49,846 bases of DNA from a virus (Duplodnaviria; Heunggongvirae; Uroviricota; Caudoviricetes). A model generated the notes under the pieces. The model saw nothing but the letters and a program-made list of their open reading frames with translations, did not search any database and was not told the origin of the DNA. Below are positions 27,626 through 49,139 of the stretch, piece by piece. How positions within the stretch are numbered: position 1 is the stretch's first letter; each line of letters opens with the position of its first letter. The stretch is from IMG/VR virus record IMGVR_UViG_2529293147_000015. The stretch is one strand, 5' to 3'. The translations under genes and the position numbers were made by a program.

Positions 27626-27629
27626 GTGA

Positions 27630-30684: not shown

Positions 30685-30696
30685 CAGTAACCTCTT

Positions 30697-31746: not shown

Positions 31747-31747
31747 G

Positions 31748-32149: not shown

Positions 32150-32193
32150 ATCAGAGGTGGCGAGGGATTTCTCCCCCGCCAGGTCTCTTACTC

Positions 32194-32343
32194 CTCAGGT
32201 TCGTAAGCTGTGAAGACAGCGACCTCCGTCTGGCCGGTTCGGATTCGTACCTCGCAGAGGTCTTTCCTCGTTACCAGTGCCGTCACTATGACGGTTAAAC
32301 AGATGACGATCAGGGCGATTAACATCGCCTTTCGCTGCTTCAT
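32194..32343 (-). pseudogene. hok/gef-family type I toxin, C-terminus frameshifted by a 1-nt insertion
   Basis: Reads MKQRKAMLIALIVICLTVIVTALVTRKDLCEVRIRTGQTEV then RCLHSLRT*; removing one C near 32220 restores the canonical ...VAVFTAYEPEE* ending; small upstream ORF (32340..32399) whose stop overlaps the hok ATG. Confidence 0.6.
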
Positions 32344-33062: not shown

Positions 33063-34262
33063 ATGCCATTTGTTATTTATGTGTTTACTATCAGTGCCTT
33101 TGCGCTCGGACTCGCGGAATTTGTCCCCATTGGGCTGACAGACGTTATGGCTCAGGGGTTGTGTGTGGGTGTGGAGCAGACCGGGGCAGCGGTTACAACC
33201 TATGCACTGGGGGCAACGTTCGCGGCACCCGTACTGTCTGCGCTGACAGCAAGCTGGAGCCGGAAAAATGTAATGCTTACAACTGCCGTTGTGTTTACTG
33301 CCGGTAGTCTGGCGGCCGCGTTTGCAGCCACATTACCTCAGCTCCTGTTAGCGCGGTTCATTGCTGGTCTGGGACACGGCCTGTTTCTGGCTGCGGCATC
33401 CAGTACCGCAGCTCGTCTTGCTGGACCGGGTAAAGCAGGCAGAGCGGTGGCTGTGGTATTTGGTGGCTTTACTCTGGCGATGGCAATCGGCGTACCGCTG
33501 AGTACATGGTTGGGGGGGGTGGTCTCATGGCGTCCAGTTCTCGGCGCTATTGCCGCTTTTGGCGCGTTCGGATTCCTTGGACTGTTGTTCGGTATGAAAG
33601 ATCCCGTACGCAGCGTGCCCGGTGAACATAGTGACTCAGCAATGCAGAATATCGGCATGCTGTTTAACCGTAAGTTGCTGGCCGGCGCGCTGGTTACGGT
33701 GCTGGCGTATGCAGGCTCGTTTACGGCTTACACCTTTATCGCACCTATTCTGACGCAGGTGACAGGGGTTACCGGAGCAACGGTGAGTCTGTTTATGCTG
33801 GTTTACGGTATTACAGCTGCGGTAGGTAATATTCTTGGTGGGAAACTTACCGACAGCATGGGGGTTAATCGTGCCAATATACTCATCATTAGCGGCATTG
33901 TTGTTGTCGTGCTTGGTATGTGGCTGCTGTCATCCTCACCGGTGAGCATGGGCATTCTGGTTGCGCTGCTGGGTATGGTGACATTTGCCGCAGTGCCGGC
34001 ACTGCAGGCCCGTCTGATTGGTGTCGCTGAGCAACATGCTCCTCATGCGCATGGTGTTGCTGCCGGCCTGAATATTGCGGGCTTCAACTCAGGTATAGCG
34101 CTGGGATCAGTACTGGGCAGCATTACTATAAGCCACGCCGGTATCGTGTATACCGGTATCAGCGGTGCGATTGTTTCTCTGCTCGGCCTGCTGTTGCTGC
34201 TTGCACAAATCCGTCGCAGCCACAGTCGTAAATTTCAACAGGTTAAAATCGTAGGCCAGTAA
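33063..34262 (+). CDS. MFS transporter (12-TM efflux type)
   Basis: 399-aa polytopic membrane protein with characteristic Gly-rich TM helices. Confidence 0.8.
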   Translation: MPFVIYVFTISAFALGLAEFVPIGLTDVMAQGLCVGVEQTGAAVTTYALGATFAAPVLSALTASWSRKNVMLTTAVVFTAGSLAAAFAATLPQLLLARFIAGLGHGLFLAAASSTAARLAGPGKAGRAVAVVFGGFTLAMAIGVPLSTWLGGVVSWRPVLGAIAAFGAFGFLGLLFGMKDPVRSVPGEHSDSAMQNIGMLFNRKLLAGALVTVLAYAGSFTAYTFIAPILTQVTGVTGATVSLFMLVYGITAAVGNILGGKLTDSMGVNRANILIISGIVVVVLGMWLLSSSPVSMGILVALLGMVTFAAVPALQARLIGVAEQHAPHAHGVAAGLNIAGFNSGIALGSVLGSITISHAGIVYTGISGAIVSLLGLLLLLAQIRRSHSRKFQQVKIVGQ

Positions 34263-34273
34263 AGGGAGGTTAT

Positions 34274-34966
34274 ATGCTTACCCGTGAAAATATGCTTAAT
34301 GGCACATTTGTCAGGGTGCATGAAGCGCTGCTCCCGGCGAATATGCTCTGGGACGCTGAAAAAATACGCGCATCAATGAACTCTACTCTGGAGGAGCGCC
34401 CGACGGGTGCTCCTTTCTGGATATTTGCCTACGGGTCATTGATGTGGAATCCCGTGCTGGCAATTGAAGAAATGCAACGGGCCCGTCTGAAAGGATGGCA
34501 GCGCAGTTTCTGCATTCGTTTGATATCCGGACGAGCGACTCCTGATGTCCCCGGCAGGATGTTATCGCTCGACGAAGGTGGAATTACCGAAGGGATTGCG
34601 TTCAGACTGCCGGAATCGACTCTTATTAATGAGCTGGAAATTGTCTGGACGCGCGAGATGATAACCGGTCTTTACCGTCCGGTCTGGGCAGACGTTTCGC
34701 TAGGAAACGGTGAGGAAATTCAGGCGCTGGCTTTCGTATCAGACAGACTGCATCCGCATTATGAACAGGACAATCTTACAGCGACCGTAGCATTGAGCAT
34801 CGCATCTGCCCGTGGAGACATTGGCACGAATGCAGATTATGTATGGAAACTGCAGGCCACTCTGGGTGCGTTGGGAATACGGGATGATTACGTGAGTGAA
34901 CTGGCCCTTGCTCTGCATGAGGCTCCCTGTAACGATAAACTTCATCAGCGAGGCGCTTCACTATGA
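34274..34966 (+). CDS. ChaC-like gamma-glutamylcyclotransferase family protein
   Basis: FWIFAYGSLMWNP motif and ...LWTREMITG... Confidence 0.75.
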   Translation: MLTRENMLNGTFVRVHEALLPANMLWDAEKIRASMNSTLEERPTGAPFWIFAYGSLMWNPVLAIEEMQRARLKGWQRSFCIRLISGRATPDVPGRMLSLDEGGITEGIAFRLPESTLINELEIVWTREMITGLYRPVWADVSLGNGEEIQALAFVSDRLHPHYEQDNLTATVALSIASARGDIGTNADYVWKLQATLGALGIRDDYVSELALALHEAPCNDKLHQRGASL

Positions 34967-35844
34967 GCCATCTGAGCCATCTGCGAACGTTTCTTGAGGC
35001 CTATCGCTCTGGCTCCTTTTCAAAGGCGGCAGAACTACTGGGCATCACTCAGCCCGCGGCGTCACAGCATATCCAGTCTCTTGAGACTCTGGTTGGTAAG
35101 CGTCTGTTTATCAGGCAGGCCAGAGGCGTGACGGCAACCGAAGCTGCGGATGAGCTTGCCCGCTCAGTTTCACCCTTCATTGATGGTCTGGAAGAAAAGC
35201 TGTCCTCTTTCCGGTCAGGCTCTGTACACGGGGGAACAATTAATCTGGCAGGACCGCCAGATTTTATTCATTCCCGGCTTGGGACAGTAATGGCTCCACT
35301 AATGAAGGAGGGGTATCGCTTACGCTTTCATACCGGCAATAAGCAACGTATTTATTCCCTTTTGCATGACGGGAGCGCCGATCTCGCTGTTACCGCATCT
35401 ATGCCTGATGACCGTCTGTACGGCTATGCACATCTACTGACTGAACGCATGCTCCTTGTTCATGCTCCCGCCATGTCAGAGATCATCGGATCAGAACCTG
35501 GTGCTGAAACGCTTGCCTCATTACCGCTGATTGCTTATGACGAAGAGTTGCCACTGATTAGAGCGCTCTGGGCCTCCATGTTTCAGAGAGCCCCTGAGAT
35601 GCAGGCTACATTCACCATTCCGGATTTACGTATTATCCGCGACTTGGTCTGTGACGGCCACGGGTGGACAGTGCTGCCGGATTATCACTGTGACAATGAC
35701 CTGAAAAGTGGTCGCCTGATTTCAGTGACCCCTGCAGACCTCGCTCCGACTAATCATCTTTATCTGGTCTGGAACAAAAGGACGGCTAATAACAGCCGAA
35801 CCGCCTATGTTCGGGATTACATTCTTAAAACGTTTCCGCGTTGA
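34963..35844 (+). CDS. LysR-family transcriptional regulator
   Basis: N-terminal HTH (LRTFLEAYRSGSFSKAAELLGITQPAASQHIQSLE) plus substrate-binding domain; start overlaps the ChaC-like stop. Confidence 0.85.
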   Translation: MSHLSHLRTFLEAYRSGSFSKAAELLGITQPAASQHIQSLETLVGKRLFIRQARGVTATEAADELARSVSPFIDGLEEKLSSFRSGSVHGGTINLAGPPDFIHSRLGTVMAPLMKEGYRLRFHTGNKQRIYSLLHDGSADLAVTASMPDDRLYGYAHLLTERMLLVHAPAMSEIIGSEPGAETLASLPLIAYDEELPLIRALWASMFQRAPEMQATFTIPDLRIIRDLVCDGHGWTVLPDYHCDNDLKSGRLISVTPADLAPTNHLYLVWNKRTANNSRTAYVRDYILKTFPR

Positions 35845-35888
35845 TGTTTGAAACGGATGATTGGCGATGCGTATCATAAGTTACGTAT

Positions 35889-35918
35889 GTCCGCTTCTGG
35901 CACAAAGCAGACGCCCAC
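35889..35918. repeat. Direct repeat copy 1 (GTCCGCTTCTGGCACAAAGCAGACGCCCAC)
   Basis: ~30-bp imperfect direct repeat of 39562..39591; the pair brackets the DUF2254 and BCCT genes. Confidence 0.5.
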
Positions 35919-35974
35919 TCTCACGCGAATGCTTTGCCCTTGACTTGCCAACAACCGTATCGCTTGCTCCGCAA

Positions 35975-37267
35975 CTATGGTTTTTTATTAGAACCTTCGC
36001 CACTAAATAAATTATAATAAATTGATTTTATTAGATATCTGTCAGAATCTATATGGTCAGCACGAGTAGCATGCTCTAATGTTTCAAATGCTAGGGTTTG
36101 TGCGGCTTCAGCAAAAATTCCAGGCCAACCCTTACTCAGCATCGACAGTCCTTTAAGTACCCTTATCTGAATTTCCCTCATACTGGCACCATCGCGCGCA
36201 ACAGGTGAGAAAAAGTCTTCAAGTAGATCGTTATTCTGAAGTGGTGCAACATGTACAGAAGGATATTTCACTTCTATTTCATCAGATTTATTCTGCGCGT
36301 AAGCGGAAAGTATACGTACACCTCTGCCAATGACATCAATGGCGGTTCCAGGATCGTTCACTGCGGGGGAAAGGGCTCGGCAGGCTATTTCGGCCATGAC
36401 GCTAAGACAAAATCGGGGGTCCTGAGCAAATGAACGTACATCCGAGACAATAATCGTCTCAAGTAAATCGGTGCTGATTGATGACTCCTGGCCCTGACTC
36501 AGGTACAAAACTGGCGTGGACGGATGTATGAAACTGCCCGGCTGCGCCACGAGGTATACATGACGGGGATCATTGGTCAGCAGCTTGCTGAGTTTCACCA
36601 TATCAACATATTCAACATAGCCAATCTTTTTCGGATAAACTGCAACCGTTCCTTTCGGCTGTTCATTGTTCTCAAGCCAAGGATATCCGCCGAGACAGGG
36701 ATTTCTTGCTCTCGCAATAAATGTTTCGATGGCCGCCTGTTCTACTTTTGCCGTTGTCTCACCAACCCTCCCCAGAGAGGTCAAATGCTGTATCCAGCGA
36801 AGCAATGTGATGAGGATTAAGGCAATGACAACCAGTGTTACAATGAATAAAATGACTCTCCCCCTTTCTCCATAAGCTCCCATATTGAGGGCAATAATCC
36901 CTACCAGACTGAAGAGAAAAGAACCGATGAAGGTGGCCAGTACATTTTGTGTGGTGACGTCTTCAACAACTAAACGAGTAGCTCTGGGAGTCACATTAGT
37001 AGTGGCTGAACCGTAGGCTGTGACCATGATGCTCAGCGAAAATGTGGTCACTGCCAGCATACTCGATGCCAGTATGTTCAGAATGTTATCGACTGCTTCC
37101 GCACCAACCTTCACGGAAACCGACTCAGGTATCATTGATTTAAAAAGAATTGATAAAAGGGCCGTTATTATTGCGACAATTGCGAATAACGTTGCCCTGA
37201 ACCATAGTTTTTTAAATGTCTGCTTCAGCATCCATTTCCAGCGTGAAATCATTCTGCATTCCCTCAT
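35975..37267 (-). CDS. DUF2254-type integral membrane protein
   Basis: 430-aa ORF with N-terminal TM bundle and soluble C-terminal domain. Confidence 0.6.
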   Translation of the reverse strand: MRECRMISRWKWMLKQTFKKLWFRATLFAIVAIITALLSILFKSMIPESVSVKVGAEAVDNILNILASSMLAVTTFSLSIMVTAYGSATTNVTPRATRLVVEDVTTQNVLATFIGSFLFSLVGIIALNMGAYGERGRVILFIVTLVVIALILITLLRWIQHLTSLGRVGETTAKVEQAAIETFIARARNPCLGGYPWLENNEQPKGTVAVYPKKIGYVEYVDMVKLSKLLTNDPRHVYLVAQPGSFIHPSTPVLYLSQGQESSISTDLLETIIVSDVRSFAQDPRFCLSVMAEIACRALSPAVNDPGTAIDVIGRGVRILSAYAQNKSDEIEVKYPSVHVAPLQNNDLLEDFFSPVARDGASMREIQIRVLKGLSMLSKGWPGIFAEAAQTLAFETLEHATRADHIDSDRYLIKSIYYNLFSGEGSNKKP

Positions 37268-37315
37268 ATTGCAGCCGGGATAAATAAATGCCGCCTCTGT
37301 GGCGGCATGTTGCTG

Positions 37316-39319
37316 TTAACGAACCAGATGCAGGAAGTGCAGGTGTTTTTCGTACTGGTCCAGTATGTCATTAATCAGCTGTTCCTGATTCCAGCCCATT
37401 ACATCATAATTTTGGCCGCCCTCTTTGAGATAGACTTCAGCGCGATAATATCGATGTTGTTCACTCTGCTGCTCATCATTATCCAGCGCAGCGAGCGCGA
37501 AGGTCGGTGAGTTATACCCGCGAAGCCTCACTTCATATATATAATTCAGCTCGTTGCCCAAATCGACTTCAAGGCGAATACGATCCTCGGCGGCGTCACT
37601 GATGTGGCTTATCGTTCCCTGCTTGTTAAGTTCCTCCTGAACCAGCGTCATGGCGGGTTGGATAATGTCGTCCATAAAACGTTTCACAAGAGAGCGCTTC
37701 GGCAAATACGCGATATTGCGTAACCTTCTCTGCCAGGGAATTGGGTTACGTGCAGCCGTAGGAGCAATAGTCGCCATGCTAAGGCTTTCACGCTTGGTCA
37801 AATCCCGACGCAGGGCTTTTAACAGTCCGTATATGGATATTAATAAGATAACTGAGAAGGGCAATGCACTCGCTATCGTTACGGTTTGCAACGCACTCAG
37901 CCCCCCTGCGATCAGCAGGGCAATAGCAACAACGCCCATGAGCGATGCCCAGAAAATTCGCTGCCAGACGGGCGTGTTTGCCACCCCACCTGATGCCAGA
38001 GTATCCACAACCATTGCCCCCGAATCAGCAGACGTTACAAAGAAGACGATGACCATCGCCATTGCAATGAATGACAGCACGGAAGAGAACGGGAAATGCT
38101 CCAGGAAATTAAACAGGGCAAGCGCAACATCCTGCTGAACGGTATTGGCGAGGTCAGTGGCGCCCTGGTTCATGATGAGATAGATGGCGCTGTTTCCAAA
38201 CACCGTCATCCACATGAGCGTAAAGCCGGCGGGAACAAACAACACGCCAGTCACGAACTCACGAATTGTCCTGCCGCGGGAAACGCGTGCAATGAACATA
38301 CCTACAAACGGCGACCATGAAAGCCACCATCCCCAGTATAATAATGTCCAGCCCCCCAGCCAGTTGCTCGACTTGGGTTCATACGCGTAAAGGTTGAACG
38401 TTTTACTCACCAGTTCCGACAGATAACCACCCGTATTTTCCACAAATGACTTCAGCAGAAGCACAGTGGGACCCAGGCACAAGACCAGCGCCAGGAGCAA
38501 CACCGCCAGGCCCAGATTAAGCTCAGACAGGATGCGTATTCCCTTGTCCAGGCCGGACACCACCGAAATCGTCGCTAACCCCGTGATGACCACGATCAAA
38601 ATGACCTGTACCGTTTCATTGATGGGCACGCCGAAAAGATGGTTCAAACCGGCATTCACCTGCAATACACCGTAACCCAGTGATGTTGCAACGCCAAAGA
38701 CAGTGCCTATCACGGCGAAGATATCAACCGCGTGGCCTATAGGCCCGTAAATGCGATCGCCGATAATGGGATAGAGCGCAGAACGCAGCGTTAAAGGCAG
38801 ACCGTGACGGTAACTGAAAAAGGCCAGAATCAGCGCCACGATGGCATAAATTGCCCATGCGTGCAGACCCCAGTGGAAGAACGTCAGGCGCATGGCTTCC
38901 TTCGCTGCCGCAACGGTCTCTGGAGTGCCGACAGGTGGCGAAAGATAATGCATCACAGGTTCGGCAACGCCAAAGAACATCAGGCCGATCCCCATCCCTG
39001 CCGAAAAAAGCATCGCGAACCAGGAGTGGTAGCTGAAATCAGGCTGCGCATGGTCTGGGCCCAGCTTTATATCACCGTAACGTGAGAGTCCAAGGAACGT
39101 GACGCTCAGTAAAATCAGGGCCACAGCAAGTATGTAGAACCAGCTGGCATTCGTGAAGATTTGTTGCTGAAGTAGTTTAAAATTTTTGTCGGCGACATCC
39201 GGGAATACGGCGGCAAAGGCGACAAGAAGGAAAATTAGCAAAGCAGATGTAAAGAATACCGCTTTGTTAATCTGGCTTGTAGACTTCTTTGGGGTTGTAT
39301 CATTTTCACTCATAATCAT
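37316..39319 (-). CDS. BCCT-family (betaine/carnitine/choline) transporter
   Basis: 667 aa; BCCT signature around WTLLYWGWWLSWSPFVGMFIARVSRGRTIREF. Confidence 0.85.
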   Translation of the reverse strand: MIMSENDTTPKKSTSQINKAVFFTSALLIFLLVAFAAVFPDVADKNFKLLQQQIFTNASWFYILAVALILLSVTFLGLSRYGDIKLGPDHAQPDFSYHSWFAMLFSAGMGIGLMFFGVAEPVMHYLSPPVGTPETVAAAKEAMRLTFFHWGLHAWAIYAIVALILAFFSYRHGLPLTLRSALYPIIGDRIYGPIGHAVDIFAVIGTVFGVATSLGYGVLQVNAGLNHLFGVPINETVQVILIVVITGLATISVVSGLDKGIRILSELNLGLAVLLLALVLCLGPTVLLLKSFVENTGGYLSELVSKTFNLYAYEPKSSNWLGGWTLLYWGWWLSWSPFVGMFIARVSRGRTIREFVTGVLFVPAGFTLMWMTVFGNSAIYLIMNQGATDLANTVQQDVALALFNFLEHFPFSSVLSFIAMAMVIVFFVTSADSGAMVVDTLASGGVANTPVWQRIFWASLMGVVAIALLIAGGLSALQTVTIASALPFSVILLISIYGLLKALRRDLTKRESLSMATIAPTAARNPIPWQRRLRNIAYLPKRSLVKRFMDDIIQPAMTLVQEELNKQGTISHISDAAEDRIRLEVDLGNELNYIYEVRLRGYNSPTFALAALDNDEQQSEQHRYYRAEVYLKEGGQNYDVMGWNQEQLINDILDQYEKHLHFLHLVR

Positions 39320-39561
39320 TTATTCCATTAATTAAATCCGCACTGGATAGAAGGTACTACCTCTCACAGAGTAGCAAAGTTCAACTGGCTATGCGGGGTT
39401 AATCGGAATGCATGGTGGAATGAGTGCCGATACAAATCATCCTATATTCTAAGGAGTTTTAAGTTACTCAGCCTGCCAATTACTGGGGCATTTAATTTGT
39501 ATGATCTGTATCAAAGCTGGGATATAAGTTAAGTGAAGTATATTAGGCACGAATTACCAGC

Positions 39562-39591
39562 GTCTGCTCTTGGCACAAAGCGGACAACCAC
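39562..39591. repeat. Direct repeat copy 2 (GTCTGCTCTTGGCACAAAGCGGACAACCAC)
   Basis: Matches 35889..35918 at ~24 of 30 positions. Confidence 0.5.
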
Positions 39592-39653
39592 GCTAGCTCT
39601 ACCCTGTGCCACAAAATGTCAATTTGCATCTGAACTAATGCACTTTAATCTCG

Positions 39654-40076
39654 TCACTTCAATAAATACCGAACATCCCCCTGATAAAACGACAATATGC
39701 GCTGCATAACTTCGCTCTTCCGGCACTCGCGACAGATTATGTTTAGGCGACTGTCGTAGCGACGTATTTCTCCGTCAGGTAATGACCAGATAAGGTCCGG
39801 ATCAACCACAACCGGTTTCTTCAGCTTTGCCCTCGATAATTTTTTGCGGGCATTTTGCCAGTCTTTACGAGCCTGTTCAGACGGGAATAACCCGTAGCCA
39901 GAATTGTATACATCGCCACTGGCAACCAGCTCTCTGGCCAGAACGCTCATCAGATATCTTGTTGCCCCAGTTTTAGCTTCCAGTTGTCGTAACGTCTCGC
40001 GCCCACTCTGGCGTACGAGTTCAAGAACCTGCCCTTTAATTTTTTCCCGCTCTTCTTGTGTAAAAACTTTTGCCAC
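39654..40076 (-). CDS. Hypothetical phage early protein, possibly DNA-binding
   Basis: 140-aa ORF downstream of the replication initiator. Confidence 0.5.
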   Translation of the reverse strand: MAKVFTQEEREKIKGQVLELVRQSGRETLRQLEAKTGATRYLMSVLARELVASGDVYNSGYGLFPSEQARKDWQNARKKLSRAKLKKPVVVDPDLIWSLPDGEIRRYDSRLNIICRECRKSEVMQRILSFYQGDVRYLLK

Positions 40077-40116
40077 AAGCCCTCCTGAAAATTACCTCAT
40101 GACCAGAAATTAACAC

Positions 40117-41193
40117 TTACCCCCTGAAGCCCGGCGGAATTTCGTTATCCGGTTCAGAAATATGATTCACACAACGCTGGTTGTTCGTGCCGCTTACCGG
40201 GAGCAACCAGGGGTTCTCAAAATTCCGGTCCGGTCCAAAAAACGTCGTCGCTCGCTGAACAAATTCCGTTCCCGTTTTCCCGGTAGCCGCCAAGTATCTT
40301 GCGTAACGCCTCACGCCATCCAGCATGGCCTCTGGTGGCACCCCCTCGCGTAATCTGGCCTTCCAGGCACTGAAAGCGGATTTCTTCGGGTTTGCCCCAG
40401 CACGCAACGGGTACTCCCGCCAGACCTGTTCGAACACATCCGGATAATCCACTCGTCCCACAGACTGCCCGGTGTTTTCCGGGACTACCCGATCGGCTTC
40501 CCGCTGAATGGCGGAATCGGCTTCAGGGTGCTGCAGTTGGTGTGATTGCTCCGCCCTTGCGGTCATCACCTGCTGCACAGCGCCCGAATCGGCTTTCAGC
40601 GCATACGCTGAATCGGCTTCCGGTGTCGTGCCTGCTGGCTGACCAAGATTGACGGTCTGAACATCCCCTGCCTGGTTCGTGGCGTTTTTTACGCCATGGA
40701 CCATAGTGTTTTGATCTTCTTGATCTGTATCTTTATCTGTATCTTTATCTGTCGTGACTCGTCGTGACATGTGCGTGACATTTCGTGACGCGCCGTGACA
40801 ATCGCCATTTTGTTCCCGCTTTCTTTCCCTCTCTCGCTGCGCCCTCTTGCGCTCTGCAGGAGATTTTGCGGTTTGCGAAATATTGCCGTTGTCCTCTTTA
40901 AGCACCTGGCGTTTTTCCCATCCAGTGATTAAATCACCATCAAGTACCCGCCCCTGCATCGTCTGCAAAATTGAATCAATTACCTCTTCTGTCACGTCGA
41001 GCGCACTTGCCAAATCTTCTGTCGTGACATCAATGTGACCTCGCGTGACATTTCGTGACGCGCTCACCAGGAGGTGGATATACACTGCCATCACTGTTGC
41101 AATTGGCTGCCCTGACACCCTGGCAATTGTTCGCCACTTAGGGTCATTTGGCATGTCATGCCATAATCTGAGCCAGGCGTTAGCCATACTCAC
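40117..41193 (-). CDS. Replication initiation protein (YdaU/DUF1376-like) with internal iterons
   Basis: 358-aa ORF in the O-gene position after Cro-like and YdaT-like genes; internal CGTGAC iterons. Confidence 0.55.
   Translation of the reverse strand: MSMANAWLRLWHDMPNDPKWRTIARVSGQPIATVMAVYIHLLVSASRNVTRGHIDVTTEDLASALDVTEEVIDSILQTMQGRVLDGDLITGWEKRQVLKEDNGNISQTAKSPAERKRAQRERERKREQNGDCHGASRNVTHMSRRVTTDKDTDKDTDQEDQNTMVHGVKNATNQAGDVQTVNLGQPAGTTPEADSAYALKADSGAVQQVMTARAEQSHQLQHPEADSAIQREADRVVPENTGQSVGRVDYPDVFEQVWREYPLRAGANPKKSAFSAWKARLREGVPPEAMLDGVRRYARYLAATGKTGTEFVQRATTFFGPDRNFENPWLLPVSGTNNQRCVNHISEPDNEIPPGFRG
40721..40806. repeat. Putative replication origin iterons, cluster 1
   Basis: Five CGTGAC copies at ~10-11 bp spacing (40753, 40763, 40774, 40785, 40795) preceded by tandem TATCTTTATCTG. 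Confidence 0.55.
41018..41064. repeat. Putative replication origin iterons, cluster 2
   Basis: CGTGAC repeated at 41023, 41044, 41055; CGTGACATTTCGTGACGCGC shared with cluster 1. Confidence 0.5.
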
Positions 41194-41258
41194 CTCTTTT
41201 GATACCGAATCTTTTTACTCACAAATTGCCGGAAGTGATCCGGTATGAATATTGCGAG

Positions 41259-41684
41259 TCAATGCACAGCCACAATATTTCCTGCAGGGCCACCACGATT
41301 CATCTGGTTGAAACCAGCGATCGCCACTGCGACAAAATCATCAGCGTCTCTCACCAGCCGTTCCCGCGTCTCCACCAGCTCCCGAAACCAGGCTGAACTG
41401 TGGCTGCGCATTCGGGCCACCAGCAGAGGCGGCATTGCTTTTTCGATAGCTGGTAACAACGCCTGAATTTTTTTAACCGCATCAGGGGTGTCTTTCTCCA
41501 CCCAGCGGAAAATTTTCTGAGTATTGCGAGCCAGGGCTTCCGGATGGCTGTCGTTATACAGTTCCGGGAACGTCATTCCCAGCTCGAAATACGCTTTGGT
41601 AATTTTCGCAGCCGGAACTTTTTCACCGTCCGGATGCGCCCAGGCATTCATCGCCATGCGGATGTGTTCATGCTTGATTTTCAT
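41259..41684 (-). CDS. YdaT-like protein (CII-like regulator position)
   Basis: 141-aa ORF MKIKHEHI... immediately downstream of the Cro-like gene. Confidence 0.5.
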   Translation of the reverse strand: MKIKHEHIRMAMNAWAHPDGEKVPAAKITKAYFELGMTFPELYNDSHPEALARNTQKIFRWVEKDTPDAVKKIQALLPAIEKAMPPLLVARMRSHSSAWFRELVETRERLVRDADDFVAVAIAGFNQMNRGGPAGNIVAVH

Positions 41685-41983
41685 GAATCAACTCCATCAG
41701 ATAAGCATGCACTACAATCACCTTCAGCATGAACTACATGTGTTTGCCCCAAACGAATGCCGCTCGCATACTCAGGCCAAATAAGCTCCCAATCATGGGG
41801 TCGTAGCTCCGCCCTACTTACTTGGCCTTCCGTCGCAGATTCGATCATAAGGGCGCGTGTTGGAGATATAGCTGCTCGTCCAGACGCCATTTGCGATAAG
41901 TAAGATGGCGATACACCAAGTCTGGCTGCGAATTTCTTAGCATCACCAACCCTCAATGATTTAATAAACTCTTTTAATGTCAT
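41681..41983 (-). CDS. Cro-like HTH regulator (YdaS-like)
   Basis: HTH segment AKKFAARLGVSPSYLSQMASGR; divergent from the repressor gene. Confidence 0.6.
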   Translation of the reverse strand: MTLKEFIKSLRVGDAKKFAARLGVSPSYLSQMASGRAAISPTRALMIESATEGQVSRAELRPHDWELIWPEYASGIRLGQTHVVHAEGDCSACLSDGVDS

Positions 41984-41991
41984 ACCTTCCT

Positions 41992-42070
41992 CGGTTTAGT
42001 GTTTTTTTTGAGAGTTTAGTGTTTAATAAACCATTAAGTCAAGTATTTGCTTGTTTAGTGATTACTAAAG
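41992..42070. promoter_or_regulatory. OR-like operator and divergent promoter region
   Basis: Three GTTTAGTG copies (41994, 42015, 42053) and palindrome GTTTAATAAAC between the divergent Cro-like and repressor genes. Confidence 0.5.
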
Positions 42071-42081
42071 ATAATTACCAC

Positions 42082-42453
42082 ATGCAAAAAAAAGAAATTC
42101 GCCGTTTACGTCTCAAGGAGTGGTTTAAAGATAAAACTCTGCCACCCAAAGAGAAGAGCTACCTATCTCAACTAATGAGTGGGAGAGCCTCGTTTGGAGA
42201 AAAGGCTGCCAGAAGAATAGAGCAAACATACGGGATGCCGGAAGGGTATCTGGATGCGGAATACGCAGAACAACCGGAGGTTTCTCCACCACATGCAGGG
42301 TTAACGTCTAATCAACTGGAATTATTGCAGATTTTTTCAGCCTTCCCTGAGGATGAGCAACGCCAGATAATCAGCGAGTTAAAGCAGAAAAAAGAATCAA
42401 TGGAAGATCTCATAGCGAGATGGATTGCGGCGCAAAAATGCCGCCGCGCCTGA
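42082..42453 (+). CDS. Prophage repressor / regulator (RacR- or PaaR-like)
   Basis: ORF from MQKKEIRRLRLKEW...; divergent to the Cro-like gene and upstream of the TA pair. Confidence 0.55.
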   Translation: MQKKEIRRLRLKEWFKDKTLPPKEKSYLSQLMSGRASFGEKAARRIEQTYGMPEGYLDAEYAEQPEVSPPHAGLTSNQLELLQIFSAFPEDEQRQIISELKQKKESMEDLIARWIAAQKCRRA

Positions 42454-42473
42454 GTTATAAAACCGGAGGAAAC

Positions 42474-42665
42474 ATGAATAGAGCCCTTTCACCAATGGTT
42501 TCTGAATTTGAAACCATTGAACAAGAAAACAGTTACAACGAATGGCTGCGTGCAAAAGTAGCAACGAGCCTTGCAGATCCACGCCCAGCAATTCCCCATG
42601 ACGAAGTTGAGCGCAGAATGGCAGAACGCTTTGCTAAAATGCGCAAGGAACGGAGCAAGCAGTAA
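42474..42665 (+). CDS. Type II antitoxin (small, PaaA/ParD-like)
   Basis: 63-aa ORF MNRALSPMVSEFETIEQENSYNEWLRAK..., RBS GGAGGA, stop 1 nt before the toxin start. Confidence 0.6.
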   Translation: MNRALSPMVSEFETIEQENSYNEWLRAKVATSLADPRPAIPHDEVERRMAERFAKMRKERSKQ

Positions 42666-42666
42666 A

Positions 42667-42945
42667 ATGTTACCCGTGTTATGGCTTGAAAGCGCAGATA
42701 CCGACCTAGATGATATAACTAGTTATATTGCTCGTTTCGACATAGATGCGGCTGAACGCTTATGGCAGCGATTAAGGGGTTGTGTGCTGCCGTTATCCGA
42801 ACATCCGTATTTATACCCACCAAGCGACAGAGTACCTGGCTTGCGTGAGATTGTAGCCCACCCTAACTATATAATTCTATACCGCGTAACAACATCAAGC
42901 GTTGAAGTAGTAAACGTGATCCACGCAAGACGCCAGTTTCCCTAA
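42667..42945 (+). CDS. ParE/RelE-family toxin
   Basis: 92-aa ORF MLPVLWLESADTDLDDITSYIA... ending ...ILYRVTTSSVEVVNVIHARRQFP. Confidence 0.7.
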   Translation: MLPVLWLESADTDLDDITSYIARFDIDAAERLWQRLRGCVLPLSEHPYLYPPSDRVPGLREIVAHPNYIILYRVTTSSVEVVNVIHARRQFP

Positions 42946-43013
42946 CTTTCACTACCAATAGAAACATAACAACCGCAACGACTTTATCAAAAGCGTTGTG
43001 TTTGTTACGCCCT

Positions 43014-43066
43014 GCGGTTTAGTTTTTACTTGACTTAAGTTTAATGTTTATTAAACTAAAAATATC
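43014..43066. promoter_or_regulatory. OL-like operator region
   Basis: Inverted copy of the OR sequence (TTAATAAAC, TTAAGTCAAG shared) upstream of the plus-strand early-left genes. Confidence 0.45.
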
Positions 43067-43155
43067 AACCCACCCCGCCCCACATAATGCAGGGCAATAC
43101 TTCGAGTTACCAGGCAGTGGTCAGGGGTTAAGTAGCCAGCCCGAGGCGTAAGAAC

Positions 43156-43392
43156 ATGACGGCAGGGTTCAACTTTAATAACTATGCAGCAGGTTTTTGT
43201 TCCGCTACCCCGGCGTTAAGGGGAAATGAGGTCAGCATGGATACTATCGATCTTGGCAACAGCGAATCTCTGGTATGTGGCGTGTTCCCCAACCAGGACG
43301 GTACGTTCACCGCGATGACGTATACCAAAAGCAAAACGTTTAAAACCGAAAATGGTGCCCGTCGCTGGCTGGAAAGAAACTCAGGTGAGTGA
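43156..43392 (+). CDS. Hypothetical early-left protein
   Basis: 78-aa ORF, first gene after OL. Confidence 0.35.
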   Translation: MTAGFNFNNYAAGFCSATPALRGNEVSMDTIDLGNSESLVCGVFPNQDGTFTAMTYTKSKTFKTENGARRWLERNSGE

Positions 43393-43393
43393 T

Positions 43394-43522
43394 ATGGATT
43401 TCGACACAATCATGGAAAAGGCTTACGAAGAATACTTCGAAGGTCTTGCCGAAGGCGAAGAAGCTCTCAGCTTCAACGAATTTAAACAGGCGCTTTCCAG
43501 TTCGGCAAAATCTAACGGCTGA
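43394..43522 (+). CDS. Small acidic protein (42 aa)
   Basis: ATG 2 nt after the upstream stop; MDFDTIMEKAYEEYFEGLAEGEEALSFNEFKQALSSSAKSNG; below ORF-track cutoff. Confidence 0.3.
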   Translation: MDFDTIMEKAYEEYFEGLAEGEEALSFNEFKQALSSSAKSNG

Positions 43523-43551
43523 TAAGCGAAACAGCACCGCGAGGAATCAGT

Positions 43552-43767
43552 ATGCAGAAACGAGAACCCGTCATCATCGCGCCAGACTATACCGATGATG
43601 AACTTTATGAGTGGATGCACCAGAAAATTAATGCAGCGCAGGATCTGAAATGGGCCAATGAAGCTAGGGCTAAGCAGGCTGAAAATCTGTCCGCTCTGGA
43701 GCAGGATATCACCAATCTGGAAAAAGCAGCAGCATTAAGCATTGCCAGAATGATTACAGGTTGGTAA
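43552..43767 (+). CDS. Hypothetical early-left protein
   Basis: 71-aa ORF, coiled-coil-like C-terminus. Confidence 0.4.
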   Translation: MQKREPVIIAPDYTDDELYEWMHQKINAAQDLKWANEARAKQAENLSALEQDITNLEKAAALSIARMITGW

Positions 43768-43777
43768 TAAAGGAGTT

Positions 43778-43829
43778 CTCCACGGGTGAGGTGGAGTGCG
43801 TGTGCCGGACACGGGTGAGCATCCGGCAC
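43778..43829 (+). ncRNA. Tandem stem-loops sharing CACGGGTGAG (candidate structured RNA or protein-binding element)
   Basis: Hairpin 1 CTCCAC-gggtgag-GTGGAG (43778..43796); hairpin 2 GTGCCGGA-cacgggtgagca-TCCGGCAC (43802..43829). Confidence 0.3.
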
Positions 43830-44306
43830 TGACAGTTTACTGAAAGGATATTTCCCTGAAAAGTCAGACCATAACGCGAAAGCGCACGGCGAGGTAGCTG
43901 GTTCATAGATAGCCTGTCGTTAAATTTTCGTCGACCGTGCGCTTCCGGTTGTGGCAATCCGCGAAATGGCGCGGCGGTAAGTATGGCGGGGTTATTCCTT
44001 CCCCCGTTGAGGACACCGGGTTGTCAGGTTGACCATACGCTTAAGTGACAACCCCGCTGCAACGCCCTCTGTTATCAATTTTCTGGTGACGTTTGGCGGT
44101 ATCAGTTTTACTCCGTGACTGCTCTGCCGCCCTTTTTAAAGTGAATTTTGTGATGTGGTGAATGCGGCTGAGCGCACGCGGAACAGTTAAAACCAAAAAC
44201 AGTGTTATGGGTGGATTCTCTGTATCCGGCGTTAATTGTTAACTGGTTAACGTCACCTGGAGGCACCAGGCACCGCATCACAAAATTCATTGTTGAGGAC
44301 GCGATA

Positions 44307-44495
44307 ATGAAAACGTTATTACCAAACGTTAATACGTCTGAAGGTTGTTTTGAAATTGGTGTCACTATCAGTAACCCAGTATTTACTGAAGATGCCATTA
44401 ACAAGAGAAAACAAGAAGGGGAGCTATTAAATAAAATATGCATTGTTTCAATGCTGGCTCGTTTACGTCTGATGCCAAAAGGATGTGCACAATGA
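44307..44495 (+). CDS. Small hypothetical protein
   Basis: 62-aa ORF from MKTLLPNVNTSEG..., RBS GAGGA. Confidence 0.35.
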   Translation: MKTLLPNVNTSEGCFEIGVTISNPVFTEDAINKRKQEGELLNKICIVSMLARLRLMPKGCAQ

Positions 44496-44683
44496 ATTCA
44501 GCATTTGCGCTTGTTCTGACAGTTTATCTTGTTTCCGGAGAGCCAGTTGATATTGCAGTCAGTGTTCACAGGACAATGCAGGAGTGTATGACTGCAGCAA
44601 CCGAACAGAAAATTCCCGGTAACTGTTACCCGGTCGATAAAGTTATTCACCAGGATAATAACGAAATCCCGGCAGGTCTTTAA
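44492..44683 (+). CDS. Small secreted or membrane protein
   Basis: 63-aa ORF MNSAFALVLTVYLVSG... with signal-peptide-like N-terminus; ATGA overlap with the upstream gene. Confidence 0.4.
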   Translation: MNSAFALVLTVYLVSGEPVDIAVSVHRTMQECMTAATEQKIPGNCYPVDKVIHQDNNEIPAGL

Positions 44684-44775
44684 AACAGTTCCGTAATAAA
44701 TATCCGGTTTCATTCTTATATGCCAGCAATGGCAGGGATTTATTCACCCTTAAATCTGTAATGAGGTAAAACAAA

Positions 44776-47247
44776 ATGAGTAAAGTCTTTATTTGCGCCG
44801 CCATTCCGGACGAACAGGCAATAAAGGAAGAAGGTGCAGTCGCTGTAGCCACAGCCATTGAAGCTGGCGACGAACGCCGTGCTCGAGCAAAATTTCACTG
44901 GCAATTCCTGGAGCATTATCCGGCTGCTCAGGACTGCGCTTATAAATTTCTTGTTTGCGAGGATAAACCCGGTATACCCCGCCCTGCCCTCGATTCCTGG
45001 GATGCTGAATATATGCAGGAAAACCGCTGGGATGAGGAGTCTGCTTCCTTTGTCCCGGTTGAGACTGAATCAGATCCGATGAACGTCACTTTTGACAAGC
45101 TGGCCCCTGAAGTACAGAACGCTGTCATGGTTAAGTTCGACACATGTGAAAACATCACCGTTGATATGATTATTAGCGCGCAGGAATTGTTGCAGGAAGA
45201 CATGGCAACATTCGACGGACATATCGTTGAAGCGTTGATGAAAATGCCAGAAGTTAACGCCATGTATCCGGAGCTTAAGTTGCACGCCATTGGGTGGGTT
45301 AAGCATAAATGTATTCCTAGTGCTAAATGGCCCGAAATTCAGGCAGAGATGCGCATCTGGAAAAAACGTCGCGAAGGTGAACGCAAGGAAACCGGAAAAT
45401 ACACGTCTGTTGTTGATCTCGCCCGCGCCAGAACCAATCAACAGTACACTGAAAATTCAACAGGAAAAATCTGCCCGGTCATTGCTGCCATTCATCGCGA
45501 ATACAAGCAGACATGGAAAACACTGGATGACGAACTGGCCTACGCTCTCTGGCCTGGTGATGTGGGTGCCGGAAACATTGACGGCAGCATCCATCGCTGG
45601 GCAAAAAAAGAAGTTATCGACAACGACCGCGAAGACTGGAAGCGTATCTCGGCATCAATGCGCAAACAGCCTGATGCCCTTCGCTACGACCGCCAAACTA
45701 TTTTTGGCCTTGTCCGTGAGCGTCCGATCGACATTCACAAAGATCCCGTAGCACTGAACAAATATATCTGCGAATACCTGACGACAAAGGGCGCGTTTGA
45801 GAATGAAGAAACAGACCTGGGCACTGTTGATGTTCTCCAGTCATCAGAAACACAAACTGATGCAGTGGAAACTGAGGTATCTGATATCCCAAAAAATGAA
45901 ACCGCGCCGGAAGCTGAACCATCTGTAGAGCGTGAGGGGCCGTTCTATTTCCTCTTCGCAGATAAGGACGGAGAAAAATACGGTCGCGCAAACAAACTTT
46001 CTGGTCTGGATAAGGCACTGGCTGCTGGCGCCACTGAAATCACAAAAGAAGAATATTTTGCCCGAAAAAATGGCACATACACGGGCTTACCGCAAAATGT
46101 AGATACCGCTGAAGATTCAGAACAACCAGAGCCGATAAAAGTTACCGCTGACGAAGTAAACAAAATTATGCAGGCAGCCAATATCAGCCAGCCTGACGCC
46201 GATAAGTTGCTTGCTGCATCACGTGGTGAATTTGTTGAAGGGATTAGTGACCCGAATGATCCGAAATGGGTTAAGGGGATCCAGACCCGCGATTCTGTGA
46301 ACCAGAACCAGCATGAATCGGAACGGAACTACCAAAAAGCGGAACAAAACAGTCCAAATGCGTTACAAAACGAGCCAGAAACGAAACAGCCTGAACCAGT
46401 GGCGCAACAGGAAGTGGAAAAAGCCTGCACCGCTTGCGGTCAGACCGGCGGCGGCAACTGCCCTGATTGTGGCGCGGTGATGGGCGACGCAACATACCAA
46501 GAAACATTCGATGAAGAGTATCAGGTTGAAGTTCAGGAAGATGATCCGGAGGAAATGGAAGGCGCTGAACATCCACACAAGGAGAACACTGGCGGCAATC
46601 AGCATCACAATAGCGATAATGAAACTGGCGAGACGGCAGATCACCCAATTAAGGTGAACGGTCATCACGAAATCACATCCACCAGCAGGACGTGTGACCA
46701 TCTAATGATCGACCTTGAAACCATGGGAAAAAATCCTGATGCCCCGATCATCTCAATAGGTGCAATATTTTTCGATCCGCAAACCGGAGATATGGGACCG
46801 GAATTTAGTAAGACTATCGATCTGGAAACTGCTGGCGGAGTCATTGATCGGGACACCATTAAATGGTGGCTTAAGCAATCACGCGAAGCGCAATCTGCCA
46901 TTATGACCGATGAAATCCCGTTAGATGATGCACTGTTACAATTGCGGGAATTTATCGACGAAAACTCCGGTGAATTTTTTGTTCATGTCTGGGGAAATGG
47001 AGCCAACTTCGACAACACGATTTTGCGCCGTTCATACGAACGGCAGGGGATCCCCTGCCCGTGGCGTTACTACAACGATCGCGATGTACGCACAATCGTT
47101 GAGCTGGGGAAAGCCATAGACTTCGATGCCAGAACGGCTATTCCATTCGAAGGTGAGCGCCATAATGCACTTGATGACGCCCGTTACCAGGCAAAATACG
47201 TTTCAGTTATCTGGCAAAAACTGATCCCGAGTCAGGCTGATTCTTAA
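44776..47247 (+). CDS. Prophage exonuclease with C-terminal DnaQ-like (DEDD) 3'-5' exonuclease domain
   Basis: 823 aa; C-terminal motifs DLETMG, HVWGNGANFDNTIL, HNALDDARYQA; sits in the exo/recE position upstream of xis-int. Confidence 0.7.
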   Translation: MSKVFICAAIPDEQAIKEEGAVAVATAIEAGDERRARAKFHWQFLEHYPAAQDCAYKFLVCEDKPGIPRPALDSWDAEYMQENRWDEESASFVPVETESDPMNVTFDKLAPEVQNAVMVKFDTCENITVDMIISAQELLQEDMATFDGHIVEALMKMPEVNAMYPELKLHAIGWVKHKCIPSAKWPEIQAEMRIWKKRREGERKETGKYTSVVDLARARTNQQYTENSTGKICPVIAAIHREYKQTWKTLDDELAYALWPGDVGAGNIDGSIHRWAKKEVIDNDREDWKRISASMRKQPDALRYDRQTIFGLVRERPIDIHKDPVALNKYICEYLTTKGAFENEETDLGTVDVLQSSETQTDAVETEVSDIPKNETAPEAEPSVEREGPFYFLFADKDGEKYGRANKLSGLDKALAAGATEITKEEYFARKNGTYTGLPQNVDTAEDSEQPEPIKVTADEVNKIMQAANISQPDADKLLAASRGEFVEGISDPNDPKWVKGIQTRDSVNQNQHESERNYQKAEQNSPNALQNEPETKQPEPVAQQEVEKACTACGQTGGGNCPDCGAVMGDATYQETFDEEYQVEVQEDDPEEMEGAEHPHKENTGGNQHHNSDNETGETADHPIKVNGHHEITSTSRTCDHLMIDLETMGKNPDAPIISIGAIFFDPQTGDMGPEFSKTIDLETAGGVIDRDTIKWWLKQSREAQSAIMTDEIPLDDALLQLREFIDENSGEFFVHVWGNGANFDNTILRRSYERQGIPCPWRYYNDRDVRTIVELGKAIDFDARTAIPFEGERHNALDDARYQAKYVSVIWQKLIPSQADS

Positions 47248-47319
47248 TGTTCAACTGTCGCCGGTTGTGACTGGTATTCTGCAACCGGCGCTCGTCTAAT
47301 GTAAGAGATAAAGAAATCG

Positions 47320-47571
47320 ATGAGCGAAGTAATCATGATTGTCTCTCCCGGCAAATGGGTATCCGAAGAGCAGTTAATTGCGCTGAAAGGAATAAAAAAA
47401 GGTACGTTAAAAAAGGCCCGGGAAAAATCGTTTATGGAAGGAAGGGAATATAAGCATGTCGCTCATGACGGTATGCCATGGGATAACAGCCCATGCTTTT
47501 ACAACCTGGAAGAAATTGATCGCTGGATTGAGCGCCAGGCATCAGCAAGACCAAGACGTCATCTTACTTGA
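47320..47571 (+). CDS. xis: Excisionase (Xis)
   Basis: Small basic ORF immediately upstream of int. Confidence 0.65.
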   Translation: MSEVIMIVSPGKWVSEEQLIALKGIKKGTLKKAREKSFMEGREYKHVAHDGMPWDNSPCFYNLEEIDRWIERQASARPRRHLT

Positions 47572-47590
47572 CTAAAAGCCACACTAACTA

Positions 47591-48886
47591 ATGAGAGAAG
47601 TTGAAATGAAATATCCGACAGGCGTGGAAAACCATGGAGGGAAATTACGTATCTGGTTTGTTTATAAAGGCGTAAGAGTCAGGGAAAACCTGGGGGTTCC
47701 TGACACAGCAAAAAACAGGCGCGTTGCAGGCGAGCTACGCGCCTCTGTTTGTTACGCAATAAAAACTGGTGTTTTCGACTATGCAAAACAGTTTCCCTCC
47801 TCACGCAATCTGGAAAAATTTGGTGAGACCCGACAAGATTTAACCATAAAAGAACTGGCTGAAAAATTTCTGGCACTGAAAGAAACTGAAGTCGCAAAAA
47901 CATCACTCAACACATACCGTGCCGTCATCAAAAATATCCTGAGCATAATCGGTGAAAAAAATCTTGCCTCATCGATTAATAAAGAAAAATTACTGGAGGT
48001 TCGTAAAGAGCTACTGACTGGATACCAGATCCCCAAAAGTAACTATATTGTTACACAACCAGGAAGATCGGCTGTAACTGTAAATAATTACATGACAAAT
48101 CTTAACGCCGTGTTCCAGTTTGGTGTTGATAACGGTTACCTGGCAGATAACCCGTTTAAGGGGATCTCGCCATTAAAGGAATCAAGAACCATTCCGGATC
48201 CTCTTTCGCGGGAGGAATTCATCCGTCTTATCGATGCGTGCAGAAATCAGCAAGCCAAAAATTTATGGTGTGTTTCTGTTTATACTGGCGTTCGCCCTGG
48301 TGAGCTGTGTGCACTTGGATGGGAGGACATAGATCTGAAAAATGGAACAATGATGATCAGGAGAAATTTAGCAAAAGACCGTTTCACGGTACCAAAAACA
48401 CAGGCGGGAACCAATCGGGTCATTCATCTTATTAAGCCAGCAATCGACGCTCTCCGGAGTCAGATGACATTAACGAGACTGAGCAAAGAGCATATCATTG
48501 ATGTTCACCTCAGAGAGTATGGCAGAACAGAAAAACATAAATGCACCTTTGTTTTTCAACCTGAAGTGTCAGCGAGAGTAAAAAATTATGGTGACCATTT
48601 TACCGTTGACTCAATAAGGCAGATGTGGGACGCAGCGATAAAACGTGCCGGACTCCGCCATCGAAAATCATATCAGTCGAGACATACTTATGCCTGCTGG
48701 TCGCTGACAGCTGGTGCTAACCCGGCATTTATAGCAAACCAGATGGGCCATGCAGATGCGCAAATGGTATTTCAGGTATACGGAAAATGGATGTCTGAAA
48801 ACAATAATGCACAGGTAGCTTTGTTAAATACACAGTTAAGCGAGTTTGCCCCAACCATGCCCCATAACGAAGCAATGAAAAATTAA
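47591..48886 (+). CDS. int: Tyrosine integrase (alternative start at 47606, MKYPTG)
   Basis: N-terminal arm-binding-like region GGKLRIWFVYKG; C-terminal catalytic region with HTYACW...GHADAQMVFQVYGKWM. Confidence 0.9.
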   Translation: MREVEMKYPTGVENHGGKLRIWFVYKGVRVRENLGVPDTAKNRRVAGELRASVCYAIKTGVFDYAKQFPSSRNLEKFGETRQDLTIKELAEKFLALKETEVAKTSLNTYRAVIKNILSIIGEKNLASSINKEKLLEVRKELLTGYQIPKSNYIVTQPGRSAVTVNNYMTNLNAVFQFGVDNGYLADNPFKGISPLKESRTIPDPLSREEFIRLIDACRNQQAKNLWCVSVYTGVRPGELCALGWEDIDLKNGTMMIRRNLAKDRFTVPKTQAGTNRVIHLIKPAIDALRSQMTLTRLSKEHIIDVHLREYGRTEKHKCTFVFQPEVSARVKNYGDHFTVDSIRQMWDAAIKRAGLRHRKSYQSRHTYACWSLTAGANPAFIANQMGHADAQMVFQVYGKWMSENNNAQVALLNTQLSEFAPTMPHNEAMKN

Positions 48887-49139
48887 TTTAATATTTATCA
48901 AATAGTTGACACGTATGACTCTTGAAATCCATAATTCACAGATGTTTTTTCTCATTCTGTGGTTTCCTTGGCGCTTTCTAGGTTTTTTCAGATAGTTACA
49001 TTTTTTCAAAAGCATCCTGAGTTCGATCTTACTATCTATCTGTGGCCTATTTCTGTCCCATATATGCCCCAAAAAACACCCCAACAGATAAGCAATCTTT
49101 TCATGGTGTTACGCGTAAAAACAATAACGGCTTGAAATT

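Follow-up and report, generated by a model that had tools for sequence, protein, structure and literature searches.

The window (the whole stretch of DNA that was analysed, 49,846 nucleotides) carries a phage-type repressor gene with a toxin-antitoxin pair behind it and two regulator genes reading away from it on the other strand. The genes, together with one ribosome-binding site read from the sequence, are as follows.

41259-41684, minus strand: ydaT, CII analogue, 141 aa
41681-41983, minus strand: ydaS, Cro analogue with an HTH, 100 aa
42082-42453, plus strand: paaR2, CI-analogue repressor, 123 aa, ORF beginning MQKKE
42465-42469: ribosome-binding site of paaA2, GGAGG
42474-42665, plus strand: paaA2, antitoxin without a DNA-binding domain, 63 aa
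42667-42945, plus strand: parE2, ParE-family toxin, 92 aa

The first gene of the rightward set, paaR2, is separated from paaA2 by 20 nt on the same strand. The antitoxin stop codon ends at 42665 and the toxin ATG lies at 42667, leaving the 1-nt gap that the original prediction had described between a 63-aa antitoxin and a 92-aa ParE-like toxin.

Protein comparisons were made against structure, family and phage databases. The 92-aa toxin was 100% identical to ParE2 of PDB 5CW7/5CZE, matched Pfam ParE_toxin (PF05016) at 60.9 bits (cut-off 23), and was related to Caulobacter ParE1 (PDB 3KXE) at E 4e-5; the relationship to ParE, proposed earlier as a point to be checked by alignment, was thereby confirmed. 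The 63-aa antitoxin was 100% identical to PaaA2 of PDB 3ZBE/5CW7, and its sole Pfam match was PF21217 (PaaA2, 70.7 bits). YdaS matched Pfam YdaS_toxin (46.2 bits) as well as HTH_3, and YdaT matched YdaT_toxin (38.7 bits) and PHROG 163, "CII-like transcriptional activator" (E 4e-45). The ParE_toxin, PaaA2, YdaS and YdaT matches in Pfam all exceeded their cut-offs. A ParE-family toxin, an adjacent PaaA2-family antitoxin and a separate paaR gene in front of them are the components of an RAE2-type three-component system.

Residues 1-65 of PaaR2 were identical to PDB 7NKV/8C3K ("Phage repressor protein CI"), and the protein was placed in PHROG 5736 (transcriptional regulator, E 2e-39). No Pfam domain was matched by PaaR2, and in NCBIfam only a sub-threshold match to the DicA C-terminus was returned; by BLASTP, the C-terminal half resembled the DicA C-terminus (30% identity over 64 aa, E 2e-7). 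An S24 autopeptidase domain was not found in this 123-aa protein, given the lack of a Pfam match and the DicA-like C-terminal half. Because this C-terminal domain is missing, PaaR2, which acts like CI, is nonetheless no member of the CI/LexA family. The similarity to RacR that had been suggested for the repressor was not significant (BLASTP E 0.054, 15/57 identities).

Operators, promoters and RNA features around these genes were located by pattern searches, a promoter scan, RNA folding and reading of the sequence.

41674-41691, unstranded: YdaT operator OM, TTGATTTTCATGAATCAA, at the ydaS stop and ydaT start
41984-42081, unstranded: OR-like divergent control region, 98 bp between the divergent ATGs
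42014-42031 and 42053-42070: 18-bp quasi-palindromes in the OR-like region
42013-42042, minus strand: PR-like promoter from the promoter scan, TTGACT-18-TAAACT, predicted to drive ydaS-ydaT
42047-42081, plus strand: PRM-like promoter read from the sequence, -35 TTGCTT at 42047-42052 and -10 GATAAT at 42070-42075
42967-43007, plus strand: hairpin after parE2, possible operon-end terminator or stabiliser
43015-43062, unstranded: OL-like region 3' of parE2, overlapping the PL-like promoter
43017-43034 and 43039-43056: 18-bp quasi-palindromes in the OL-like region
43030-43057, plus strand: PL-like promoter from the promoter scan, TTGACT-16-TAAACT

As had been noticed, the repeats of the OR-like region recur beyond the toxin gene, and the two clusters (41984-42081 and 43015-43062) bracket the repressor and the 63-aa/92-aa pair. 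The claim that the repeats are inverted holds for one part of them. A perfect 12-nt inverted copy of TTAAGTCAAGTA (42034-42045) lies at 43027-43038, and an inverted copy of TTTAATAAAC (42022-42031) lies at 43046-43055. In contrast, the two clusters share their GTTTAGT half-sites in direct orientation, as they do a block of 13 nt (CGGTTTAGTGTTT at 41992 and CGGTTTAGTTTTT at 43015), and the OL-like stretch (43015-43062) also has a direct copy of CGGTTTAGT(G/T)TTT. The two inverted blocks are out of common register, the spacing of the shared hexamers being 18 nt in one promoter and 16 nt in the other. The relation of the two clusters is mixed, not purely inverted. The promoter core is inverted between them because PR and PL fire divergently with identical hexamers, TTGACT and TAAACT being common to both promoters.

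Exact copies of GTTTAGTG numbered three in the whole window (41994, 42014 and 42053, all on the plus strand), and these fall within 67 nt inside the 98-bp divergent gap; copies with one mismatch were present at 43017 and 43039. The operator pattern GTTTAGTNNTTANTAAAC, searched with at most two mismatches on both strands of the 49.8 kb, was found only at 42014, 42053, 43017 and 43039, that is, twice in each cluster and nowhere outside them. Five matches were counted for this pattern compared to 0.05 expected from shuffles, and five were reached in 0/100 shuffles. An exact inverted match of 12 nt linking the two intergenic regions arose in 4/2000 mononucleotide shuffles; among 229 real 210-nt slices taken from the window none attained it, the longest such match being 9.

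By its position, transcription from the PRM-like promoter is expected to begin at the A of the paaR2 ATG, which would give a leaderless transcript for this copy. The pattern TTGATTN6AATCAA had a single match in the window, at the ydaS/ydaT junction (41674-41691). Downstream of parE2, the RNA fold of 42940-43030 had an energy of -20.4 kcal/mol (z -3.27), and 0/200 shuffles were as stable. The hairpin at 42967-43007 has no canonical U-tract and may end or stabilise the operon transcript. Taken as a whole, the layout is that of a lambdoid immunity region in which the repressor and cro-like genes diverge, repeated operators overlap two promoters, another operator cluster covers a PL-type promoter beyond the repressor operon, and a CII-type gene (ydaT) follows the cro analogue with its own operator motif at the ydaS/ydaT junction.

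The module was compared with prophage Sp12 in the genome of E. coli O157:H7 Sakai; Sp12 and CP-933P are identical according to the literature (PMC8630535). Gene order, sizes and spacing in Sp12 are equal to those in the window, and the leaderless-type start context of paaR2 and the YdaT operator are the same. No residue differences were found in PaaA2 or ParE2, and parE2 had no nucleotide differences. PaaR2 matched ECs_2279 of Sakai at 121/123 residues, the linker having E66 and V67 here versus G66 and G67 in Sakai (E66G, V67G). YdaS matched at 99/100 residues, whereas 23/141 residues of YdaT differ (16%), mainly in the C-terminal half. The OR-like region is identical to that of Sp12 save for a run of T8 here versus T7 and one substitution at 42011; the run is 1 nt longer, so the spacing between two repeats is shifted, and a T8 run is also present in an ST131-like genome. 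The DNA of the PRM-like region is identical to Sp12, and the OL/PL element is base-for-base identical across its whole length. Both operator regions are thus conserved in Sp12 (OL exactly, OR nearly) while the DNA beyond them diverges. The resemblance to the PaaR-PaaA-ParE systems of O157 prophages that had been proposed turns out to be identity for toxin and antitoxin and near-identity for PaaR2. Judged from these alignments, the stretch is the already published PaaR2-PaaA2-ParE2 immunity region (RAE2) itself, in a near-identical copy.

Outside 41263-43226 the window departs from Sp12 and follows another lambdoid mosaic, the closest backbone relative being the enterotoxigenic E. coli (ETEC) prophage L003. 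That prophage sits between ydfJ and rspB, which we take to be the Qin site. The flanks are 97.7% identical to it over 30343-41695 and 99.3% identical over 43062-48938, and the segment in between (approximately 41692-43061, comprising ydaS, OR, paaR2, paaA2, parE2 and OL/PL) is unrelated to it. The breakpoints of this cassette lie at the ydaS/ydaT junction and just past the PL -10. At the repressor position, the ETEC prophage encodes a protein with 23% identity to PaaR2 (E 8e-9), and no toxin-antitoxin pair is present there. As read from this alignment, the window and the related prophage differ by a clean mosaic swap of the 1.37-kb immunity cassette. Since the ETEC prophage lacks the pair and the cassette is unrelated between near-identical flanks, the toxin-antitoxin genes move together with immunity specificity as one cassette.

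Rightward of the PL-like promoter, the window continues into the first part of a PL operon of the Qin dicBF type. The names ydfB, ydfC and dicB were taken from the L003 annotation of the 99.3%-identical region.

43237-44495, plus strand: PL operon, first part
43237-43392, plus strand: DUF1391 gene (Pfam DUF1391, 94.5 bits)
43394-43522, plus strand: ydfB-like gene
43552-43767, plus strand: ydfC-like gene
44081-44132, plus strand: DicF RNA (Rfam, 76.7 bits versus a gathering score of 48)
44307-44495, plus strand: dicB

An integrase ORF (47591-48886, 431 aa) is full-length in the window, whereas the integrase of Sp12 is a pseudogene. The window also differs from Sp12 in having an attP-like junction at 48921-48938 (core GAAATCCATAA), where the arm on the int side joins DNA from the opposite end of the ETEC prophage. 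The backbone also looks structurally complete.

The module was present in 633 of the 5426 complete E. coli genomes searched, with a best match over the module alone of 99.2%, and in one phage record, phage Evi. No complete E. coli genome reached 80% coverage of the window's right half, and no phage record matched the whole backbone, the best records covering 42% and 56% of its two halves. An origin of the window from O157:H7 itself was considered and ruled out: the genome set included Sakai, but Sp12 matches only at approximately 86-95%, and in patches, outside the module.

The biology of the system was established with CP-933P, a cryptic prophage in which RAE2 (paaR2-paaA2-parE2) lies with ydaS-ydaT (Hallez et al. 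2010; PMC8630535; PMC9986795). There, EMSA, DNase I footprints, gfp reporters, 5' RACE, bistability and mini-F stabilisation experiments were used (PMC8630535). Jurenas et al. 2021 (PMC8630535) showed PaaR2 to be the functional counterpart of lambda CI, so the proposed second role of the regulator, as prophage repressor, had already been demonstrated experimentally for CP-933P in 2021. The paaR2 mRNA is leaderless in CP-933P by 5' RACE and by the N-terminal protein sequence MQKKE (PMC8630535). PaaR2 and YdaS both footprint a 97-bp intergenic region with 18-bp GTTTAGTAA-type inverted repeats, of which Jurenas et al. count four as operators in OR; the footprints place PaaR2 on this region without narrowing its binding to one recognition sequence (PMC8630535). 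PR933P and PRM933P are subject to repression by both proteins, while PRM is activated when PaaR2 is low. Beyond parE2, PL933P has the same -35 and -10 as PR and three OL operators (OL1-3), and it is repressed approximately 100-fold by both PaaR2 and YdaS (PMC8630535).

In the same work YdaS was equated with Cro and YdaT with CII, YdaT activating a PRE-like promoter, and the CP-933P locus was found to be bistable (PMC8630535). The YdaT operator was footprinted for CP-933P as TTGATTN6AATCAA at the ydaS/ydaT junction (Prolic-Kalinsek et al. 2023, PMC9986795). Co-transcription of paaR2-paaA2-parE2 and neutralisation of ParE2 toxicity by PaaA2 were shown with toxin and antitoxin proteins identical to those encoded here, and the cassette stabilises a mini-F plasmid via post-segregational killing; no activation of ParE2 was seen in either state of the switch (PMC8630535). 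PaaR2 has no peptidase motif, and no response to mitomycin C was observed (PMC8630535). According to published work, PaaA2 is degraded by ClpAP and ClpXP, and ParE2, whose target is probably a topoisomerase, is nucleoid-associated and triggers the SOS response. The pair had also been predicted to occupy the slot held by rexAB in lambda; it is co-located behind the repressor here, and replacement of rexAB by paaA2-parE2 is stated in the 2023 paper (PMC9986795).

The locus is almost certainly the immunity region of a lambdoid phage or prophage that runs on the PaaR2/YdaS/YdaT switch, with paaA2-parE2 co-transcribed behind the repressor. The basis for this in the window is protein and DNA identity together with a non-random operator architecture. 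Binding, repression, leaderless start, bistability and post-segregational killing are carried over from CP-933P, and this copy would be expected to behave likewise. PaaR2 would be translated from a leaderless PRM transcript and bind the GTTTAGT-type repeats in OR (41984-42081) and OL (43015-43062). On OR it would silence PR, keeping ydaS-ydaT and the replication genes off, and on OL it would silence PL, keeping off the dicBF-type kil operon (DUF1391/ydfB/ydfC, DicF and dicB), exonuclease, xis and int. At low levels PaaR2 would stimulate its own PRM. YdaS, as the Cro analogue, would compete for the PaaR2 sites, giving two heritable states and a bistable switch, and YdaT bound to TTGATTN6AATCAA at 41674-41691 would activate a PRE-like promoter whose transcripts run back through paaR2-paaA2-parE2. 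With paaA2-parE2 placed in the operon of the repressor, a lysogen would go on producing labile PaaA2 and stable ParE2. After loss of the cassette, PaaA2 would be degraded by ClpAP/ClpXP and the remaining stable ParE2 would poison the cell, so that the pair would act as an addiction module for the immunity cassette.

An alternative is that paaA2-parE2 is mainly a device for superinfection exclusion or abortive infection, a Rex analogue in which an incoming phage causes loss of PaaA2 and ParE2 kills the cell. Many type II toxin-antitoxin systems defend against phages, and the pair, like rexAB in lambda, is placed behind the repressor and co-transcribed with it. The authors of the CP-933P study also leave the role of paaA2-parE2 open (PMC8630535). 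However, a PADLOC defence-model search of PaaR2, PaaA2 and ParE2 returned zero matches, the literature searched (since 2022) yielded no anti-phage report for PaaA2 or ParE2, and the sole demonstrated phenotype is post-segregational killing with plasmid stabilisation (PMC8630535). As the main function, exclusion is accordingly considered improbable. An exclusion role and an addiction role of the pair are not mutually exclusive.

It is far harder to credit that PaaR2 is dedicated to the toxin-antitoxin operon and regulates nothing else, equivalent to the split-off DNA-binding domain of an antitoxin, with the true prophage repressor encoded elsewhere. PaaR2 was first described, in 2010, as a toxin-antitoxin operon regulator, and the split-antitoxin idea is mentioned by the 2021 authors (PMC8630535). 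Yet the same operator motif and hexamers are present at PL, which drives dicBF/exo/xis/int and not the toxin-antitoxin genes, and paaR2 lies at the cI/dicA position with a C-terminal half homologous to DicA. The related prophage with near-identical flanks has a distantly related protein at the repressor position without any toxin-antitoxin pair, and no other repressor candidate was found between the replication genes and int. Repression of PR and PL by PaaR2 in published reporters effectively refutes this reading (PMC8630535). Least probable of all, to a degree that leaves it practically no weight, is that the similarity of OR and OL is a chance match in AT-rich intergenic DNA. Both regions are indeed AT-rich, and one-mismatch copies of GTTTAGTG are not enriched across the window (31 found versus 31.7 expected), but the clustering of all three exact copies, the confinement of the 18-bp motif to the two regions, the real-sequence controls for the 12-nt inverted match and the conservation of both regions in Sakai Sp12 stand against it. 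Chance was refuted by the shuffle and real-sequence controls.

Within the reading of the locus as a PaaR2/YdaS/YdaT immunity region, it is conceivable, though rather doubtful, that the cassette serves a live, excision-competent temperate phage, unlike the decayed CP-933P. This is suggested by the complete-looking backbone, the full-length integrase ORF and the attP-like junction. If true, a repressor without an autocleavage domain would be running the lysis-lysogeny decision by an unknown induction route, and a ParE toxin would police loss or replacement of a 1.37-kb cassette whose edges match mosaic breakpoints exactly; the toxin could also exclude superinfecting phages. A sharply bounded cassette that moves between lambdoid backbones fits the published idea that the pair guards the immunity region against replacement. 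The case also confirms that a toxin-antitoxin pair embedded in a lambdoid immunity region can be recognised, together with that region, by a reader who has only the raw sequence.

The immunity region resembles that of lambda in its divergent PR/PRM with multiple operators, the second operator cluster at PL, a presumably leaderless repressor mRNA, accessory genes co-transcribed behind the repressor, and Cro-like and CII-like genes on the other side of it. It differs from lambda in sharing no sequence similarity with it, in having a repressor devoid of the S24 autocleavage domain, in its 18-bp GTTTAGTAA-type operator repeats, and in carrying a ParE toxin-antitoxin pair in place of RexAB. Qin dicA-dicC/dicBF of E. 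coli K-12 shares the PL-side operon (DUF1391/ydfA, ydfB, ydfC, DicF and dicB) and has a DicA C-terminus related to the C-terminal half of PaaR2, whereas the N-terminal DNA-binding domain of DicA and its operators differ and no toxin-antitoxin pair follows dicA. The racR-ydaS-ydaT region of Rac has the same divergent repressor layout, with YdaS and YdaT of the same families, but similarity between PaaR2 and RacR is undetectable and racR is not followed by a toxin-antitoxin pair. Finally, canonical two-gene parDE systems (Caulobacter ParE1 and V. cholerae ParDE2) share the toxin fold and family (PF05016); there, unlike here, transcription is under toxin-antitoxin autoregulation, whereas PaaA2 lacks a DNA-binding domain and a separate phage repressor takes over the control of transcription.

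Relative to the ETEC prophage located between ydfJ and rspB, the closest backbone relative of the window, the whole immunity cassette at 41692-43061 was a sharp-edged mosaic replacement. The replaced block carried ydaS (the Cro analogue), the control region OR, the repressor gene paaR2, the antitoxin and toxin genes paaA2 and parE2, and the operator/promoter element OL/PL, and the flanks of the two phages were 97.7% and 99.3% identical.

Within OR, at 42002-42011, the T-run comprised eight residues in both the window and an ST131-like genome versus seven in E. coli O157:H7 Sakai. An A/C substitution at 42011 also distinguished the window from Sakai, and jointly these two differences changed the spacing of the first two GTTTAGTG repeats in OR from 19 to 20 nt.

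Beyond the cassette, an operon of the Qin dicBF type was found on the PL side, with the following features:

43237-44683, dicBF-type stretch of the operon, including a DUF1391 gene, a ydfB-like gene, a ydfC-like gene and a DUF1482/ydfD-like ORF
44081-44132, DicF small RNA (Rfam, 76.7 bits)
44307-44495, dicB

Further features were annotated to the left of the immunity cassette:

44-242, minus strand, match to the IS009 RNA family (Rfam, 229 bits), within the gene for tail-fibre assembly, at the window's left edge
27456-27705, minus strand, two phage-borne tRNA genes, Arg (tct) and one with a CAT anticodon
32341-32511, minus strand, sok antisense RNA (Rfam, 104.8 bits), part of a type I toxin-antitoxin system, hok/sok
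33063-39319, block of non-phage cargo genes

The tRNA genes were located upstream of the lysis region, and the one with the CAT anticodon was called Met by ARAGORN versus Ile in the annotation of homologous prophages. The hok/sok locus is a second toxin-antitoxin system of the same phage, beside paaA2-parE2. The cargo block had the hok/nin region on one side and the replication genes on the other, and encoded an MFS transporter, a gamma-glutamylcyclotransferase, a LysR regulator, a DUF2254 protein and a BCCT transporter, all assigned by homology to the annotation of the ETEC prophage.

An attP-like junction was present after the integrase gene at 48900-48960, with an 11-bp core (GAAATCCATAA) at about 48924-48934. 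Across this core, DNA 3′ of the integrase gene ran on into sequence from the opposite, ydfJ-side end of the related ETEC prophage, and by this arrangement the window has the look of phage DNA in excised, circular or tandem form, not of a boundary between prophage and host.

Lastly, PaaR2 (gene 42082-42453) was compared with DicA, the Qin prophage repressor. No likeness was detectable between their N-terminal DNA-binding domains; residues 56-119 of PaaR2, in the C-terminal half that is presumably the oligomerisation part, were homologous to the C-terminus of DicA (30% over 64 aa, E 2e-7).
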